Origin: a virus
Virus genome (UHGV): UHGV-0287771
Length of the DNA: 25,755 nt
Reading direction: 5' to 3' (one strand)
Position 1 is the stretch's first letter. Every line of letters starts with the position of its first letter. The notes beneath the pieces were generated by a model. It was not told the origin of the DNA, searched no databases, and worked only from the letters and a program-made list of their open reading frames with translations. The position numbers and the translations under genes are program-made. Positions 3,968 through 10,487 of the stretch are shown one piece after another.

Positions 3968-4291
3968 ATGAAGATGCCAGAAAAACATGACCTGTTAGCC
4001 GCCATTCTCGCGGCAAAGGAACAAGGCATCGGGGCAATCCTTGCGTTTGTAATGGCGTACCTTCGCGGCAGATATAATGGCGGTGTGTTTACAAAAACAG
4101 TAATCGACGCAACGATGTGCGCCATTATCGCCTGGTTCATTCGTGACCTTCTCGACTTCGCCGGACTAAGTAGCAATCTCGCTTATATAACGAGCGTGTT
4201 CATCGGCTACATCGGTACTGACTCGATTGGTTCGCTTATCAAACGCTTCGCTGCTAAAAAAGCCGGAGTAGAAGATGGTGGAAATCAATAA
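3968..4291 (+). CDS. S: class I holin, lambda S type (dual-start antiholin/holin)
   Basis: 107 aa beginning [27 protein letters not shown] with Met1-Lys2-Met3 dual-start motif; near-identical to lambda S as recalled; three hydrophobic segments. Confidence 0.9.
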
Positions 4292-4751
4292 TCAACGTAA
4301 GGCGTTCCTCGATATGCTGGCGTGGTCAGAGGGAACTGATAACGGACGGCAGAAAACCAGAAATCATGGTTATGACGTCATTGTAGGCGGAGAGCTATTT
4401 ACTGATTACTCCGATCACCCTCGCAAACTTGTCACGCTAAACCCCAAACTCAAATCAACAGCCGCCGGACGCTACCAGCTTCTTTCCCGTTGGTGGGATG
4501 CCTACCGCAAGCAGCTTGGCCTGAAAGACTTCTCTCCGAAAAGCCAGGACGCTGTGGCACTGCAACAGATTAAAGAGCGTGGCGCTTTACCGATGATTGA
4601 TCGCGGTGATATTCGTCAGGCTATCGACCGTTGCAGCAATATCTGGGCTTCACTGCCGGGCGCTGGCTATGGCCAGTTCGAGCATAAGGCTGACAGCCTG
4701 ATTGCAAAATTCAAAGAAGTTGGCGGAACGGTCAGAGAGATTGAGGTATGA
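4275..4751 (+). CDS. R: endolysin, lambda R type (lytic transglycosylase)
   Basis: 158 aa beginning [39 protein letters not shown]; near-identical to lambda R as recalled; overlaps the S stop. Confidence 0.9.
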
Positions 4752-5185
4752 GCAGAGTAACCGCGATTATCTCAGCTCTGGTTATCTGCATCATCGTTTG
4801 CCTGTCATGGGCTGTTAATCATTACCGTGATAACGCCATGACCTACAAAGAGCAGCGCGATAAGGCCACATCCACAATCGCTGACATGCAGAAGCGTCAA
4901 CGTGATGTAGCAGAACTTGACGCCAGATACACAAAGGAGCTTGCTGATGCTAACGCGACTATCGAAAGCCTCCGTGCTGATGTTTCTGCTGGGCGTAAGC
5001 GCCTGCAAGTCGCCGCCACCTGTGCAAAGTCAACGACCGGAGCCAGCAGCATGGGCGATGGAGAAAGCCCAAGACTTACAGCAGATGCTGAACTCAATTA
5101 TTACCGTCTCAGAAGTGGAATCGACAGGATAACCGCGCAGGTTAACTACCTGCAGGAATACATCAGGACGCAATGCCTTCGATGA
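4748..5185 (+). CDS. Rz: i-spanin Rz
   Basis: 145 aa with N-terminal transmembrane anchor ([30 protein letters not shown]) and coiled-coil periplasmic domain; ATGA overlap with the R stop; lambda Rz-like N-terminus. Confidence 0.85.
4947..5132 (+). CDS. Rz1: o-spanin Rz1 (lipoprotein), embedded in the +1 frame of Rz
   Basis: Strong SD AAGGAG 4934-4939, 7 nt before ATG 4947; signal peptide with lipobox (LLGVSAC), Pro-rich mature part; lies wholly inside Rz. Confidence 0.65.
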
Positions 5186-5360
5186 TAGCGATAATTTTAC
5201 TCATCATCCTTCACATCTGGCTCTGTAGACAGGGTGATGATCACTTCTGGAGTGAATCCAGATTAAACATCTCATTGCTGATGCTTGATATTGAGCATCT
5301 GGCGCGCGGTAAGGGGCTGCGTTGAGATAAGAGCCAGTCATCACAAACACCAGGATTTAG

Positions 5361-5384
5361 CCTCGCATTCGCGGGGTTTTTTAT
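5361..5384 (+). terminator. candidate intrinsic terminator downstream of the lysis cassette
   Basis: CCTCGC (5361-5366) / GCGGGG (5371-5376) stem with one G-U pair and short loop, followed by TTTTTTATT. Confidence 0.4.
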
Positions 5385-5406
5385 TCCCAACTCCATAGGT
5401 AATTTT

Positions 5407-5886
5407 ATGACTCAGCATATTGGCGTAAAATTGATTAACGCCTTTCCGATGACGAGACAGGCATATAACGATTTTCGTGGCTGGCAGCTTCCTGCCGGAG
5501 AAAACGGCGAGGACGAAGGCTATCTGGTTGAATATCTGGATGGCGGAAAACCTAACACCGATCGCTTTGATGGCTACGTTAGCTGGAGTCCAAAAGAAGT
5601 ATTCGAAAAGGCTTATCGTCCGGTATCAGGGTTAAGTTTCGGCCTTGCCATGGAAGCGTTAAAACAGGGCAAAAGTTTGCAGCGGGCAGGATGGAATGGG
5701 AAAGACCAGTTTGTTTATCTCGTGAAAGGGGAAAAATTAGCGTCTGCGTTGGGTTATGGCTTTGGCGAATATGTTGGCGAGCCAACTTTCAATGACACGC
5801 TTGTATTGAAAAACTCACAGAACCGCCTTGCTACATGGGTTCCATCCATTGGCGACCTGATGGCTGAAGACTGGCAAATCATTTAA
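5407..5886 (+). CDS. DUF2829-like (Tad2-like) domain protein with ~70-aa N-terminal extension
   Basis: C-terminal two-thirds carries the pattern recalled for DUF2829 (LSFGLAMEALKQGKSLQRAGWNGK ... WVPSIGDLMAEDWQII). Confidence 0.55.
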   Translation: MTQHIGVKLINAFPMTRQAYNDFRGWQLPAGENGEDEGYLVEYLDGGKPNTDRFDGYVSWSPKEVFEKAYRPVSGLSFGLAMEALKQGKSLQRAGWNGKDQFVYLVKGEKLASALGYGFGEYVGEPTFNDTLVLKNSQNRLATWVPSIGDLMAEDWQII

Positions 5887-6189
5887 CCATGTAGGCATTA
5901 CAAAGCCTATCTACGGGTGGGCTTGATAATGAAACCGGAGTTAATTTCTGGTCACTAATTAACGACAGTACAGCGAAACAACCCAAGCCAGTAAGTGGGG
6001 AAATAACACTGGCAGCCACTGAAAGATGAACCTCCAGCCTTATGGCAAAAAAGATTCTTTGTGGTGGCGGACTGATGGAAAGACATCGGTTATTGCAGAG
6101 GCCATTCAATGAATGGTCTCGACAATGGCTTATACCCTACACGGGATAACTTAACTGATATCCCTTTTAACGGATAAACAGAGCCAACA

Positions 6190-6432
6190 ATGGCAGAGAT
6201 TATTCCCATGACTGAAGAACAGAAATTCCAGTTAGAGCTTTACAAGCTGGTCATGAACCAGAACGCAGCCGCAGAGGAAGCATTTCAATTCATCGGCACT
6301 GACGCGTTGAAGCTTGAGCTATTCAAAATTCACTTCCAGTCAGGCGGCGCTAATTCAGATATCACGACCCGCACAATCGAAGCGGTGCGTAAATCGAAGG
6401 AAGCGTTAGACCTGTTCACCACCGGAGCATAA
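6190..6432 (+). CDS. hypothetical 80-aa protein immediately upstream of small terminase
   Basis: ORF whose stop at 6430-6432 is 2 nt before the TerS ATG; predicted helical, no family recognised. Confidence 0.5.
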   Translation: MAEIIPMTEEQKFQLELYKLVMNQNAAAEEAFQFIGTDALKLELFKIHFQSGGANSDITTRTIEAVRKSKEALDLFTTGA

Positions 6433-6434
6433 AC

Positions 6435-6875
6435 ATGGCGCGCCCAACAAAGTATCAAGAGGCGTATGCCGAACAGGCACGCAAACTGTGCTTGCTGGGC
6501 TACACCGATGCAGAGCTTGCTGATTTCTTCGAAGTCAGTGAGTCAACTATTAACAAGTGGAAGCTTGATTATCCTGAGTTTTCGGAGTCCATAAAAAAGG
6601 GTAAGGCCGTCGCTGATGCAGAAGTTAGTGACCGTCTTTATCAACGCGCTATGGGCTTCGTGGCTCCAGACATCGATATTCGTGTTATTGAAAACAGAAT
6701 TGTCGAAACTCCGCTTGAGAAGTATTACCCGCCTGATACAACTGCCGCCATCTTCTGGCTTAAGAACCGACAGAAGGATAAATGGCGCGACAAGGTTGAT
6801 CACGAGCTAACAGGCAAAGACGGCGGCGCAATCCAGATTGAAACATCACCGATGAGCACTCTATTCGGAAAATGA
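6435..6875 (+). CDS. terminase small subunit
   Basis: 146 aa with N-terminal HTH-like segment (YTDAELADFFEVSESTINKWK); ATGA overlap with the large terminase start; position. Confidence 0.7.
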   Translation: MARPTKYQEAYAEQARKLCLLGYTDAELADFFEVSESTINKWKLDYPEFSESIKKGKAVADAEVSDRLYQRAMGFVAPDIDIRVIENRIVETPLEKYYPPDTTAAIFWLKNRQKDKWRDKVDHELTGKDGGAIQIETSPMSTLFGK

Positions 6876-8287
6876 CCTCGATTAATCCTATCTTTGAACC
6901 GTTCATTGAGGCGCATCGCTACAAAGTCGCCAAAGGCGGTCGAGGTAGCGGTAAATCATGGGCAATTGCGAGGCTGCTTGTTGAGGCGGCGCGTCGGCAG
7001 CCTGTGCGTATTCTCTGCGCTCGTGAACTGCAAAACAGTATCAGCGATTCGGTAATCCGGTTGCTTGAAGACACCATAGAGCGTGAAGGGTATTCGGCTG
7101 AGTTTGAAATTCAGCGTTCAATGATTCGTCATCTCGGAACGAATGCTGAATTCATGTTCTACGGCATCAAAAACAACCCTACGAAGATTAAATCGCTCGA
7201 AGGCATTGATATCTGCTGGGTGGAAGAAGCGGAAGCGGTAACGAAGGAATCATGGGATATCCTGATACCAACCATCCGTAAGCCATTTTCCGAAATATGG
7301 GTGAGCTTTAACCCGAAGAACATCCTCGACGATACCTATCAGCGATTCGTTGTAAATCCTCCCGATGATATTTGTCTGCTGACGGTGAACTACACCGACA
7401 ACCCGCATTTTCCTGAAGTTCTCCGTCTGGAGATGGAAGAGTGTAAACGCAGAAATCCGACACTGTATCGTCACATCTGGCTTGGTGAGCCAGTAAGCGC
7501 AAGTGATATGGCAATCATCAAACGTGAATGGCTTGAAGCCGCAACCGATGCGCACAAGAAACTCGGATGGAAAGCGAAAGGCGCGGTTGTTTCTGCACAT
7601 GACCCGTCAGATACAGGGCCAGATGCTAAAGGTTATGCATCGCGCCACGGTTCGGTAGTTAAACGCATTGCCGAAGGTCTGCTGATGGACATCAACGAGG
7701 GCGCTGATTGGGCTACTTCGCTAGCGATTGAAGACGGCGCTGACCATTACCTGTGGGATGGTGATGGTGTTGGTGCCGGGCTACGCAGACAGACAACGGA
7801 AGCGTTCTCCGGCAAGAAAATCACCGCCACGATGTTCAAGGGCAGCGAATCGCCATTCGATGAAGATGCTCCGTATCAGGCCGGAGCATGGGCTGATGAA
7901 GTCGTACAGGGTGACAACGTTCGCACTATTGGTGATGTGTTCCGCAATAAGCGAGCGCAATTCTATTACGCGCTGGCTGATAGGCTGTATCTGACATATC
8001 GGGCGGTTGTTTACGGTGAGTATGCAGACCCCGACGACATGCTGAGTTTCGACAAAGAAGCGATAGGCGAGAAGATGCTGGAGAAGCTGTTTGCAGAACT
8101 GACGCAGATTCAGCGCAAATTCAATAACAACGGGAAGCTGGAGCTTATGACTAAGGTCGAAATGAAGCAGAAGCTCGGTATTCCATCTCCTAACCTGGCT
8201 GATGCGCTGATGATGTGTATGCATTGCCCGGAGTCGGCTGCGCAACCCGACTATTCCAGTTACTCAATTCCTTGTGGTGTAGGTTGA
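6872..8287 (+). CDS. terminase large subunit (ATPase + nuclease), Sf6/P22-like size
   Basis: 471 aa; Walker A motif KGGRGSGKS near the N-terminus; Walker B-like ICWVEEAE; followed directly by the portal gene. Confidence 0.9.
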   Translation: MTSINPIFEPFIEAHRYKVAKGGRGSGKSWAIARLLVEAARRQPVRILCARELQNSISDSVIRLLEDTIEREGYSAEFEIQRSMIRHLGTNAEFMFYGIKNNPTKIKSLEGIDICWVEEAEAVTKESWDILIPTIRKPFSEIWVSFNPKNILDDTYQRFVVNPPDDICLLTVNYTDNPHFPEVLRLEMEECKRRNPTLYRHIWLGEPVSASDMAIIKREWLEAATDAHKKLGWKAKGAVVSAHDPSDTGPDAKGYASRHGSVVKRIAEGLLMDINEGADWATSLAIEDGADHYLWDGDGVGAGLRRQTTEAFSGKKITATMFKGSESPFDEDAPYQAGAWADEVVQGDNVRTIGDVFRNKRAQFYYALADRLYLTYRAVVYGEYADPDDMLSFDKEAIGEKMLEKLFAELTQIQRKFNNNGKLELMTKVEMKQKLGIPSPNLADALMMCMHCPESAAQPDYSSYSIPCGVG

Positions 8288-8288
8288 T

Positions 8289-10487
8289 ATGGCAGAAAAA
8301 AAGATGACTGACTGGCATCGCAAGGTGCTGTGCAACTTTGATAATGCCTGGTCAGCAACGCAGGATATGCGTGAGCAGATTATTGAGGCTCAACGTTTCG
8401 TCCGGGTGTCCGGCGCACAGTGGGAAGGCAGCACAAACGCTGGTTACTCATTTGATGAAGGCAGGTTTGAGCATTACCCGCGCTTTGAACTGAATAAGAT
8501 TGCCCGTGAATGTGATCGCATCATTGGCGAGTATCGACAGAATCGCATCAGCGTTAAATTCAGGCCGAAGGACGATAAGGCATCGGAAGCGTTAGCCGAA
8601 AAGATGAACGGCAAATTCCGCGCTGACTATCAGGAAACATCCGGTGGCGAAGCGTGTGATAACGCATTTGATGATGCTGTAACGGGCGGATTCGGTTGTT
8701 TCCGCATGTGTGCCGATTACGAAGATGAAATGGATCCGAGTAACGAGCAGCGACGCATCAGCCTTCTTCCTGTTTACGACCCAGCGACATGCGTCTTCTT
8801 CGATCAGGACAGCAAGCAATATGACCGCTCTGATGCTATGTGGGCTATGGAAATGTTCTCCATGACGCCCAAAGCGTTCGAGGCTGAATACCCTGATTCC
8901 ATCGCTGCAAGCCTTTCTCGTGATGACACTGGCACTCAATATGACTGGTCAACGCCTGACGCCATCTATGTTGGACGTTACTACGAAGTCCGCATAGAGA
9001 AGGTGAAGCTCACGGCGTGGCGTAACCCTGTTAGCGGAGAAACGGCAATCTATGATGAAGAGCAAATCAAAGATATTGTCGACGAGCTGACCGATGGTGC
9101 ATTCGAACTGATTGGCGAGCGAACGGTGAAGAAACGCCGAGTTTATTGCGGTCTTCTGTCTGGCGCTGAATGGCTGGAAGAACCGAAGCGTATTCCGGGC
9201 GAACATATTCCTCTCATCCCGGTATATGGGCGTCGTTCATTTGTTGATAATCAGGAGCGAATCGAAGGCCACGCAGCAAAAGCGATGGATGCACAGCGTC
9301 TTGAGAACCTGATGGTTTCCATGATTGCAGATAATGCTACTCAGGCTGGCGGTGATGGCATTCCTATCGTGGATGTTGATTTCATTCCCGGTCCATTAAT
9401 GAATCACTGGGCAGAGAGGAATAAGAAAAGACCTGCAGTTCTTCCCATGACCAGCAAGAAGGACAAAAACGGAACGGTCATTTCAGAAGCTCAGGTTGCT
9501 GGCTGGACACCTCCGACACAAATGCCTCCTGCTCTTGCCGGGCTATTGCAGTACACCGGAACTGCTATTCAGCAAATTACAGGCGCGTCGCAGCTTGAGA
9601 ACATGCCGAGCAACGTCGCTACTGATACCGTTGATAGCATCTTTAACCGGATGGATACGCAGTCCTATATCTACATGGACAACATGGCTAAATCCATGCG
9701 TCGCGCTGGCGTTGTGTGGCTTTCTATGGCGCGTGAAGTCTATGGCAGCGATACGCCGATGCGTATCGTTAATGAGGACGGCAGCGATGACGTGGCGCTG
9801 ATGACTGGTGAAGTGATTGACCGTCAGACAGGGCAGGTTATCGCGCTTAACGACCTTTCGCAGGGTAACTATGAAGTGACTGTCGATGTTGGTCAGTCGT
9901 TCGCTACTCGCCGTGATGCAACGGTTAAGTCGTTACTTTCCATGCTGGCACTTATCCCGCCAGGAACGCCGAAGCATGACCTTGTATCGTCGATGATTCT
10001 CGACAATATGGACGGCGAAGGGATGGAGGACCTTAAAGAATACAACCGCAATCAGTTGCTTCTGTCTGGCGTTATCAAGCCGAGAACGCCAGAAGAGCAG
10101 CAAATGGTTGAGCAGGCGAAACAACAACAGGCCAGTCAGCCAGATCCGGCTATGGTTGCTGCGCAAGGTCAGCTTCTTGCTGGTCAGGCTGAATTGCAGA
10201 AAGCGCAGAACGAACAGGCAGCCATTCAGGTTAAAGCATTCCAGGCACAGACTGATGCTCAGGTTGCAGCGGCAAATGTTGTGAAAATCCTCGCATCTGC
10301 CGATAGCCAGCAGAAATCTGATATCCGCGAGGCTCTGAAACTGCTCGGACAGTTCCAGCAACAGCAAGGAGACAATGCCCGTGCTGATGCAGAGCTTGTC
10401 CTGAAAAGTCAGGCACAGGGCCATGCGCAGCGCATGGACATCAGCAGCATCCTGCAAAAACCAACTCAGCAACAACCACAGCAGTAA
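8289..10487 (+). CDS. portal protein (P22 gp1-like)
   Basis: 732 aa; segments VKKRRVY...GEHIPLIPVYG and the C-terminal Gln-rich helical barrel (AMVAAQGQLLAGQAELQKAQNEQ...QRMDISSILQK) match recalled P22 portal. Confidence 0.9.
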   Translation: MAEKKMTDWHRKVLCNFDNAWSATQDMREQIIEAQRFVRVSGAQWEGSTNAGYSFDEGRFEHYPRFELNKIARECDRIIGEYRQNRISVKFRPKDDKASEALAEKMNGKFRADYQETSGGEACDNAFDDAVTGGFGCFRMCADYEDEMDPSNEQRRISLLPVYDPATCVFFDQDSKQYDRSDAMWAMEMFSMTPKAFEAEYPDSIAASLSRDDTGTQYDWSTPDAIYVGRYYEVRIEKVKLTAWRNPVSGETAIYDEEQIKDIVDELTDGAFELIGERTVKKRRVYCGLLSGAEWLEEPKRIPGEHIPLIPVYGRRSFVDNQERIEGHAAKAMDAQRLENLMVSMIADNATQAGGDGIPIVDVDFIPGPLMNHWAERNKKRPAVLPMTSKKDKNGTVISEAQVAGWTPPTQMPPALAGLLQYTGTAIQQITGASQLENMPSNVATDTVDSIFNRMDTQSYIYMDNMAKSMRRAGVVWLSMAREVYGSDTPMRIVNEDGSDDVALMTGEVIDRQTGQVIALNDLSQGNYEVTVDVGQSFATRRDATVKSLLSMLALIPPGTPKHDLVSSMILDNMDGEGMEDLKEYNRNQLLLSGVIKPRTPEEQQMVEQAKQQQASQPDPAMVAAQGQLLAGQAELQKAQNEQAAIQVKAFQAQTDAQVAAANVVKILASADSQQKSDIREALKLLGQFQQQQGDNARADAELVLKSQAQGHAQRMDISSILQKPTQQQPQQ

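Follow-up and report, generated by a model that had tools for sequence, protein, structure and literature searches.

A gene in the viral genome UHGV-0287771, of which we analyzed a stretch of 25,755 nucleotides (the window), encodes a 159-amino acid protein that joins an N-terminal module (residues 1-74) to a C-terminal Tad2-like domain (DUF2829, PF11195; residues 75-159). The Tad2 call itself adds little: the family is known, and RefSeq lists the protein as "DUF2829 domain-containing protein" (WP_000191869.1), so its family assignment is already public. As an annotated Tad2 homolog, the gene is unexceptional. The most informative part is the N-terminal module, which represents a large, unnamed and highly conserved family whose only characterized company is immune-signal sponges. 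This small module is shared by 2,568 cluster representatives, and its characterized partners are six unrelated families of such sponges.

A conserved N-terminal module shared by unrelated immune-signal sponges

The initial annotation had flagged an N-terminal extension of about 70 amino acids as unexpected and left it uninterpreted. The extension is real. Residues 1-74 carry no Pfam match, and none appears for residues 1-75 even at E<=10; searches with the module in Pfam, NCBIfam, PADLOC and the Protein Data Bank (PDB) gave no match, and none of the PDB chains resembles it by sequence or fold. Modeled alone with AlphaFold2 (AF2), the module reaches a predicted local distance difference test score (pLDDT) of 94.4, indicating that it folds independently. 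The monomer model has the order β-β-α-β-β-α, in which the N-terminal strand (E2-5) could be the element exchanged in a domain-swapped dimer.

The module is more conserved than the domain to which it is attached. Mean pairwise identity is 67% for the module and 54% for the Tad2 domain, and 20 of 74 columns are invariant in the former compared with 10 of 85 in the latter. Across 144 divergent representatives, Y20, G38, N50, Y57 and W60 are invariant and R17, N21, R24, W26, E42 and D45-G47 nearly so. In the model, the invariant aromatic, arginine and asparagine residues map to the helix 17-24 and to two long loops, not to the core of the sheet. The two domains also have discordant histories: in five proteins from Klebsiella, Raoultella and Escherichia coli (P0019, P0026, P0030, P0039 and P0043), the module is 95-97% identical while the Tad2 domain is only 44% identical, from which we conclude that recombination occurred at the domain boundary.

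Searching 1.84 billion cluster representatives with a profile of the module returned the 2,568 members at E<=1e-3, with 1,279 remaining at E<=1e-10. We determined architectures and partners for the top 144 representatives. The module is N-terminal with a C-terminal extension in 110 of them, internal in 17, C-terminal in 11 and essentially alone in six; a word-indexed search found further stand-alone module proteins of 73-80 amino acids in unrelated phages. A Pfam scan of the same 144 identified Tad2 as the partner in 45 proteins, Sequestin (PF21825) in 42, Acb4 (PF13876) in 15 and the Acb2/Tad1 hairpin in two, with WDGH, AP2 and HNH domains seen once each. PF13876 has been equated with the anti-CBASS sponge Acb4, and Sequestin is a 3'-cyclic ADP-ribose (3'cADPR) sponge that was discovered through its fusion to Tad2 and Acb4 (Tal et al.). 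The domains occur in any order, in architectures that include Acb4-module-Sequestin, Tad2-module, Sequestin-module and Acb4-module.

Upon inspection of the supplementary tables of Tal et al., the module is present there unremarked: the string GYLVEY occurs 85 times in the Sequestin table, and two Lockin homologs carry a diverged copy (GYLVRYKDGY[L/V]SWSPK). The module profile scores 31.9 bits against these Lockin fusions; 300 composition-matched shuffles reached at most 4.5 bits. It likewise matches the N-domain of gp68 of the Pectobacterium phage CB1 ('RyR Tad') over positions 2-73, with 31.5 bits (E about 5e-6 to 6e-6 for a nominal database of 1e6; best of 300 shuffles, 4.5). Together, the Pfam partners and these two profile matches join the module to six unrelated families of immune-signal sponges, namely Tad2, Sequestin, Acb4, Acb2/Tad1, Lockin and RyR Tad.

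A close parallel to the window protein in a model phage is gp49 of N4 (ABK54417.1, 160 amino acids), which consists of the N-module followed by PF11195 and is 44% identical over its full length (E 9e-45). Like the homolog in phage Huey, it adjoins an Acb4-family gene: N4 gp48 is 45% identical to Sf6 gp66. N4 differs in being lytic, in carrying gp49 in a hotspot beside the gene for the virion RNA polymerase (vRNAP), and in a shorter Tad2 loop that marks a different subtype. The N4-like anti-signaling hotspot has been described (bioRxiv 10.64898/2026.06.04.730250), and in Erwinia phage phiEaP8 a stand-alone module of 78 amino acids lies next to the vRNAP gene in such a hotspot. Our literature search for N4 gp49, or for an N-terminal accessory common to sponges, found only one remark, in that June 2026 preprint.

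That remark concerns the CB1 gp68 N-domain; the preprint, which also lists Tad3 in the same hotspots, describes this domain as of 'unknown function' and 'often a single ORF' (ORF, open reading frame). Its crystal structure is a domain-swapped dimer in which β1 is exchanged and completes a five-stranded sheet; type I Thoeris is inhibited by the isolated C-terminal RyR-like domain but not by residues 1-86 on their own (bioRxiv 10.64898/2026.06.04.730250). The C-terminal sponge of gp68 is a helical domain resembling RyR Repeat12 rather than Tad2, and its N-domain is a diverged relative of the module that lacks the RGW..P and DGG..N loops. Because a single system was tested and two near-invariant loops are missing, the inactivity of this domain says little about the canonical module.

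Fused double sponges offer a second comparison. Acb4-Tad2 of Pasteurella phage Pm86 and Acb4-Sequestin of Pseudomonas phage Ab09 (gp59) likewise combine small modular anti-signaling domains in one polypeptide, and their partners are also those with which the N-module is shuffled, in a similar manner. Both halves of those fusions are proven sponges, whereas in the window protein only one half belongs to a proven sponge family.

Several identities for the module were considered and rejected. It is not a diverged internal repeat of the Tad2 domain (hhalign probability of 0.1% between the N- and C-terminal domains), nor Lockin, Acb5 or Sequestin, for which there were no profile matches; the module profile gave no match to Sf6 gp66, LockinA, Acb5A or SPO1 Tad2. 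The Pfam name of PF13876, 'N4 Gp49/Sf6 gene 66', together with a 54% tblastn match to N4 gp49, had prompted us to consider Acb4. This identity was rejected because N4 gp49 is module plus Tad2 without a match to PF13876, and the Acb4-family gene is gp48. The content of gp48 and gp49 in the N4 record (EF056009.1, 33632-34485) thus conflicts with the Pfam name, a discrepancy that seems to stem from different gene numbering in different records and may lead annotators astray.

Three further observations concern individual members of the family. In an uncultured phage (L004:4001-4222), a 73-amino acid stand-alone module sits between genes for a class II ribonucleotide reductase and for glutaredoxin, PhoH and ClpP; this neighborhood is one of nucleotide metabolism and not an obvious anti-defense island. 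In a split-gene (Rosetta stone) comparison, no separate Tad2 gene lay beside the stand-alone module in the two contexts examined, the one just described and a site next to vRNAP in an N4-like phage. Lastly, one 215-amino acid protein (P0069) consists of the N-module, half a Tad2 domain and a fragment resembling the P22 portal, and is most likely a frameshift or an assembly chimera rather than a true architecture.

The C-terminal domain keeps the direct ligand contacts of SPO1 Tad2

The initial annotation had assigned the C-terminal part to DUF2829/Tad2 from two motifs, and these are indeed present, as EALKQGKSLQRAGWNGK at residues 83-99 and WVPSIGDLMAEDWQII at residues 144-159. The assignment holds by hidden Markov model search as well: PF11195 ('Tad2-like') matches residues 77-159 with 78.3 bits (E 6.4e-22; gathering cutoff 25), spanning profile positions 2-73 of 73 and hence the whole domain. 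In phmmer searches of PDB sequences, SPO1 Tad2 (Gp34.65; 8sme/8wje) was matched at E 3e-26 and MoTad2 from a Myroides prophage (9eib) at E 2e-18, values that chance does not account for, and the full-length protein matches phrog_872 (E 1.9e-69). SPO1 Tad2 (PDB 8SME/8SMF/8SMG, 8WJE) is the founding Thoeris anti-defense 2 sponge. Residues 75-159 align to it without a gap, with 41 of 85 positions identical (about 48-49%), which makes it the closest experimentally characterized homolog (type I Thoeris, 49%), ahead of MoTad2 (type II Thoeris and Pycsar, 44%) and Tad2_68 (types I and II, 36%). The two proteins differ in that SPO1 Tad2 is a single 89-amino acid domain, while the window protein places the 74-amino acid module before helix α1 and comes from a temperate P22-like podovirus of a Gram-negative host.

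In SPO1 Tad2, W25, N26, W73 and D79 bind gcADPR directly, and S76, T78, I63, T65, D67 and H71 have secondary or water-mediated roles (bioRxiv 10.1101/2023.05.01.538930). All four direct contacts are conserved in the window protein (W96, N97, W144 and D150), as is S76 (S147). The remaining secondary positions are changed: T78, T65, D67, H71 and I63 correspond to G149, N136, Q138, A142 and L134. Among 38 two-domain homologs, W96, W144 and D150 show no variation, and N97 and S147 almost none.

The predicted fold agrees with this assignment. The AF2 model of the full-length protein has a mean pLDDT of 88.6 and a predicted template modeling score of 0.63; in its Tad2 part (pLDDT 79-94), helices at 78-86, 108-114 and 148-152 alternate with strands at 91-93, 102-106, 131-135, 141-143 and 156-158, and the order of these elements, by which the comparison was made, is that of the published Tad2 topology. 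The β2-β3 loop has the short length seen in SPO1 Tad2. In HgmTad2, by contrast, a long insertion of about 40 amino acids between β2 and β5 builds a cyclic-dinucleotide pocket, and the short-loop SPO1 Tad2 binds gcADPR but not cyclic oligonucleotides. The gap-free alignment to SPO1 Tad2 shows no such pocket-forming insertion in the window protein, so that cyclic-dinucleotide binding, and with it the dual-sponge behavior of HgmTad2, is not expected. The best inference from the sequence is that the domain is a 3'cADPR sponge. Specificity varies among Tad2 homologs (His-ADPR, N7-cADPR, cUMP/cCMP) and is known to drift, so that His-ADPR could plausibly be bound instead of 3'cADPR or besides it.

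The lysis-to-terminase gap is a two-site anti-signaling hotspot

The initial annotation placed the gene in an accessory slot between the lysis cassette and the packaging genes. Both points hold: the holin, endolysin and Rz genes lie upstream, and DUF2560 followed by the terminase and portal genes lies downstream. Most related phages cover only 54-70% of a 1.35-kb query around the gene and carry Rha, GIY-YIG or HNH genes instead. The description of the slot can be sharpened further. Huey holds two genes there, the module-Tad2 gene (CDS0064) and a gene for a 126-amino acid protein (CDS0066), and Sf6 holds gp66 only, without a module-Tad2 gene; both gp66 and CDS0066 score 120.8 bits against PF13876. 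When we compared positions 5800-6250 of the window with these loci by blastn, a clean 413-bp indel appeared at about 6088 within flanks of 90-98% identity. It corresponds exactly to the PF13876 gene that Huey and Sf6 carry about 200 bp downstream of the module-Tad2 site and that the window lacks. The segment spans positions 2510-2922 of the Huey locus (L001) and 790-1202 of a comparison locus (L012). No acb4 remnant was found in the 303-nucleotide gap at 5887-6189, in line with a clean indel.

Because the indel corresponds to an Acb4-family gene, we read the gap as two independent cassette sites, of which the window has the first filled with module-Tad2 and the second, for Acb4, empty. Given the Acb4-family sponge gene of Sf6 and Huey some 200 bp downstream, the lysis-to-terminase gap of P22-like phages is thus a two-site anti-signaling hotspot. 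Knowledge of such a hotspot helps in the search for further counter-defense genes and in forecasting whether a given therapeutic or temperate phage evades Thoeris and CBASS.

Proposed mechanism and alternative explanations

The features described above suggest how the protein may act. We propose, with a probability of roughly 0.7, that the Tad2 domain forms a Tad2-type oligomer whose inter-protomer pockets sequester 3'cADPR, thereby disarming type I Thoeris. The domain would assemble into a homotetramer and trap the 3'cADPR (1''-3' gcADPR) made by the Thoeris TIR protein in the pockets between protomers, so that the effector ThsA would not be activated; we infer this ligand, oligomeric state and in vivo effect by comparison with characterized Tad2 proteins. 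The N-module is a mobile unit in its own right, found attached to many different sponge domains of phages. By analogy with gp68, it may self-associate as a domain-swapped dimer, and its best-supported role is to pair or bridge sponge subunits as a self-associating accessory. A second anti-signaling activity of the module is conceivable in addition.

Several points weigh against this proposal. The ligand could differ, given the five changed secondary contacts (T78G, T65N, D67Q, H71A and I63L relative to SPO1) and the varied specificity of Tad2 homologs. The N-module is joined directly to helix α1, which forms the tetramer interface in SPO1 Tad2, and none of the 18 Tad2 homologs assayed in a diversity study carries an N-module (bioRxiv 10.1101/2025.08.24.671296). 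A position in the late operon, without a promoter of its own, is late timing for an anti-defense gene. With respect to the module, the evidence for a dimer comes from the diverged gp68 copy, which lacks the canonical RGW..P and DGG..N loops, and pure dimerization leaves both the near-invariant loops and the stand-alone modules unexplained.

The alternative that we take most seriously, tentative as it is, gives the N-module an anti-signaling activity of its own: it may represent a seventh sponge family, with a different immune nucleotide as its ligand, or may directly inhibit a signaling enzyme or effector, so that the fusion would block two signals or steps together, as Acb4-Tad2 and Acb4-Sequestin do. 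The module satisfies the 'guilt by fusion' reasoning that gave Sequestin (Tal et al.), and does so more strongly, with six sponge families in any order. Its stand-alone form of about 73 amino acids occurs as an ORF of its own, including beside vRNAP in the phiEaP8 hotspot; it is short and has a homo-oligomeric relative, like sponges; it is better conserved than the Tad2 domain; and its invariant aromatic, arginine and asparagine residues are predicted to lie outside the sheet core, on the helix and long loops. A fusion screen built on Pfam would have overlooked it for lack of an entry there. The negative result for the gp68 N-domain against type I Thoeris speaks against such an activity, as does the fact that no ligand or target has been identified for the module. 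On balance, we hold it possible, at somewhat less than even odds, that the module (motif GYLVEY.DGG..N....GY.SWSP) defines a new Pfam-invisible family of phage anti-signaling proteins, acting as sponges for an immune nucleotide that no phage sponge is yet known to bind or as direct inhibitors of a signaling enzyme or effector. If so, phages would use it alone or fused to widen the range of one small protein, and the window gene and N4 gp49 would be dual inhibitors.

Two other explanations were weighed. A nucleotide-binding protein could serve a role internal to the phage or manipulate the host, for example by buffering cyclic di-GMP (c-di-GMP) or an NAD-derived metabolite, or the gene could be a decaying, functionless moron. 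HgmTad2 does bind c-di-GMP with picomolar affinity, only 45 of 5,426 E. coli genomes contain the gene, many P22-like phages do without it, and it lies in the late operon. The c-di-GMP site, however, needs the long insertion that the window protein lacks, and every characterized partner of the N-module is an immune-signal sponge. Nor is the gene decaying, because it has kept an intact ORF that is 99% conserved across hosts and whose ligand residues do not vary. We therefore regard this group of explanations as improbable. Still less credible is an AcrIIA7-type anti-CRISPR function, which would follow the label 'anti-CRISPR protein' of Huey CDS0064. AcrIIA7 (HgmTad2; PDB 8KBI and others) shares the family DUF2829/PF11195, and its structures are matched (8kbi, E 4e-6; 9kzr, E 2e-5). 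These matches are far weaker than that to SPO1 Tad2 and cover residues 76-111 only, the first third of the domain, and the long cyclic-dinucleotide insertion is absent from the window protein. AcrIIA7 moreover proved to act as a sponge for gcADPR/cGG, and the authors of the Tad2 work argue that DUF2829 proteins are anti-Thoeris rather than anti-CRISPR. The CRISPR systems of E. coli are of types I-E and I-F, not the type II-A Cas9 with which AcrIIA7 was scored. In the Huey locus, both the DUF2829/Tad2-like gene (1808-2308) and the PF13876 gene (2543-2923), an Acb4-family member, bear the identical label 'anti-CRISPR protein', which is probably an artefact of automatic categories and not evidence of Acr activity.

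Returning to the proposed Tad2-type sponge with its N-terminal accessory, the module escaped the fusion screen that uncovered Sequestin, plausibly for want of a Pfam model. It is present in tractable phages, namely N4 (gp49) and P22-like E. coli phages such as Kapi1, Huey and HZ41, and its role is therefore directly testable, be it as a new inhibitor, as an avidity or dimerization device, or as a shield against systems that sense sponges.

Genomic setting and coordinates

The window derives from a P22-like (Lederbergvirus) E. coli phage or prophage; across the region, its DNA shares 96-98% identity with phages HZ41, Huey and Kapi1. Gene order runs from NinX, an HNH endonuclease, NinG, a metallophosphatase and the Q antiterminator through holin, GH24 endolysin and Rz/Rz1 to a 50-amino acid ORF, the module-Tad2 gene, DUF2560, the small and large terminases and the portal, and onward to Mnt and the tailspike (Table 1). 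The module-Tad2 ORF is intact, with an ATG start and 159 codons, exactly where the initial annotation had placed it. E. coli HB37 carries DNA 99.6% identical, annotated 'DUF2829 domain-containing protein', and the gene is present at >=90% identity in the 45 complete E. coli genomes mentioned above, in every case on the chromosome.

Table 1. Coordinates of the module-Tad2 gene, its parts and its neighbors in the window
Feature	Position	Strand	Basis or remark
Complete gene, two-domain protein (N-module + Tad2-like), 159 amino acids	5407..5886, including stop codon	+	ORF list and sequence
N-terminal module, residues 1-74	5407..5628	+	Conserved; folds independently; recurrent fusion to immune-signal sponge domains
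C-terminal Tad2-like domain (DUF2829, PF11195), residues 75-159	5629..5883	+	Predicted gcADPR (3'cADPR) sponge
Terminator-like hairpin (5359-5378; 8-bp stem, 4-nt loop), then T-run	5359..5386	+	Consensus scan; 20 nt 5' of start codon; putative function
AGGT, probable Shine-Dalgarno sequence	5398..5401	+	Read from the sequence; 5 nt before ATG
Empty cassette site	6087..6089	none	blastn against Huey and Sf6 loci
Holin	3968-4291		Upstream of module-Tad2 gene
GH24 endolysin	4275-4751		Upstream of module-Tad2 gene
Rz	4748-5185		Upstream of module-Tad2 gene; Rz1 embedded
DUF2560	6190-6432		Downstream of module-Tad2 gene
Small terminase	6435-6875		Downstream of module-Tad2 gene
Large terminase	6872-8287		Downstream of module-Tad2 gene
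Portal	8289-10487		Downstream of module-Tad2 gene

The initial annotation had the gene follow a terminator. A hairpin with a T-run lies just upstream; yet the consensus scan found one terminator-like site in 1.5 kb, compared with a mean of 1.6 in shuffled sequences, and thus no enrichment. The same kind of scan revealed no sigma-70-like promoter upstream on the plus strand, and a moron-type gene with its own promoter was rejected on these grounds. Rather, the module-Tad2 gene is probably co-transcribed with the Q-antiterminated late operon.

Three other reading frames on the plus strand deserve mention. The 50-amino acid ORF at 5173-5325 overlaps the end of Rz and is hydrophobic at its N-terminus; E. 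coli HB37 has it annotated as a hypothetical protein, and phage Kapi1 (Kapi1_042) as a signal-peptide protein. The nin region contains a probable homing-endonuclease insertion, the HNH endonuclease ORF at 684-1190 (PF13392, 70 bits), which lies between NinX and NinG. The calcineurin-like Ser/Thr phosphatase ORF at 2230-2976, listed with a TTG start, is intact in the window and annotated as frameshifted in E. coli HB37.
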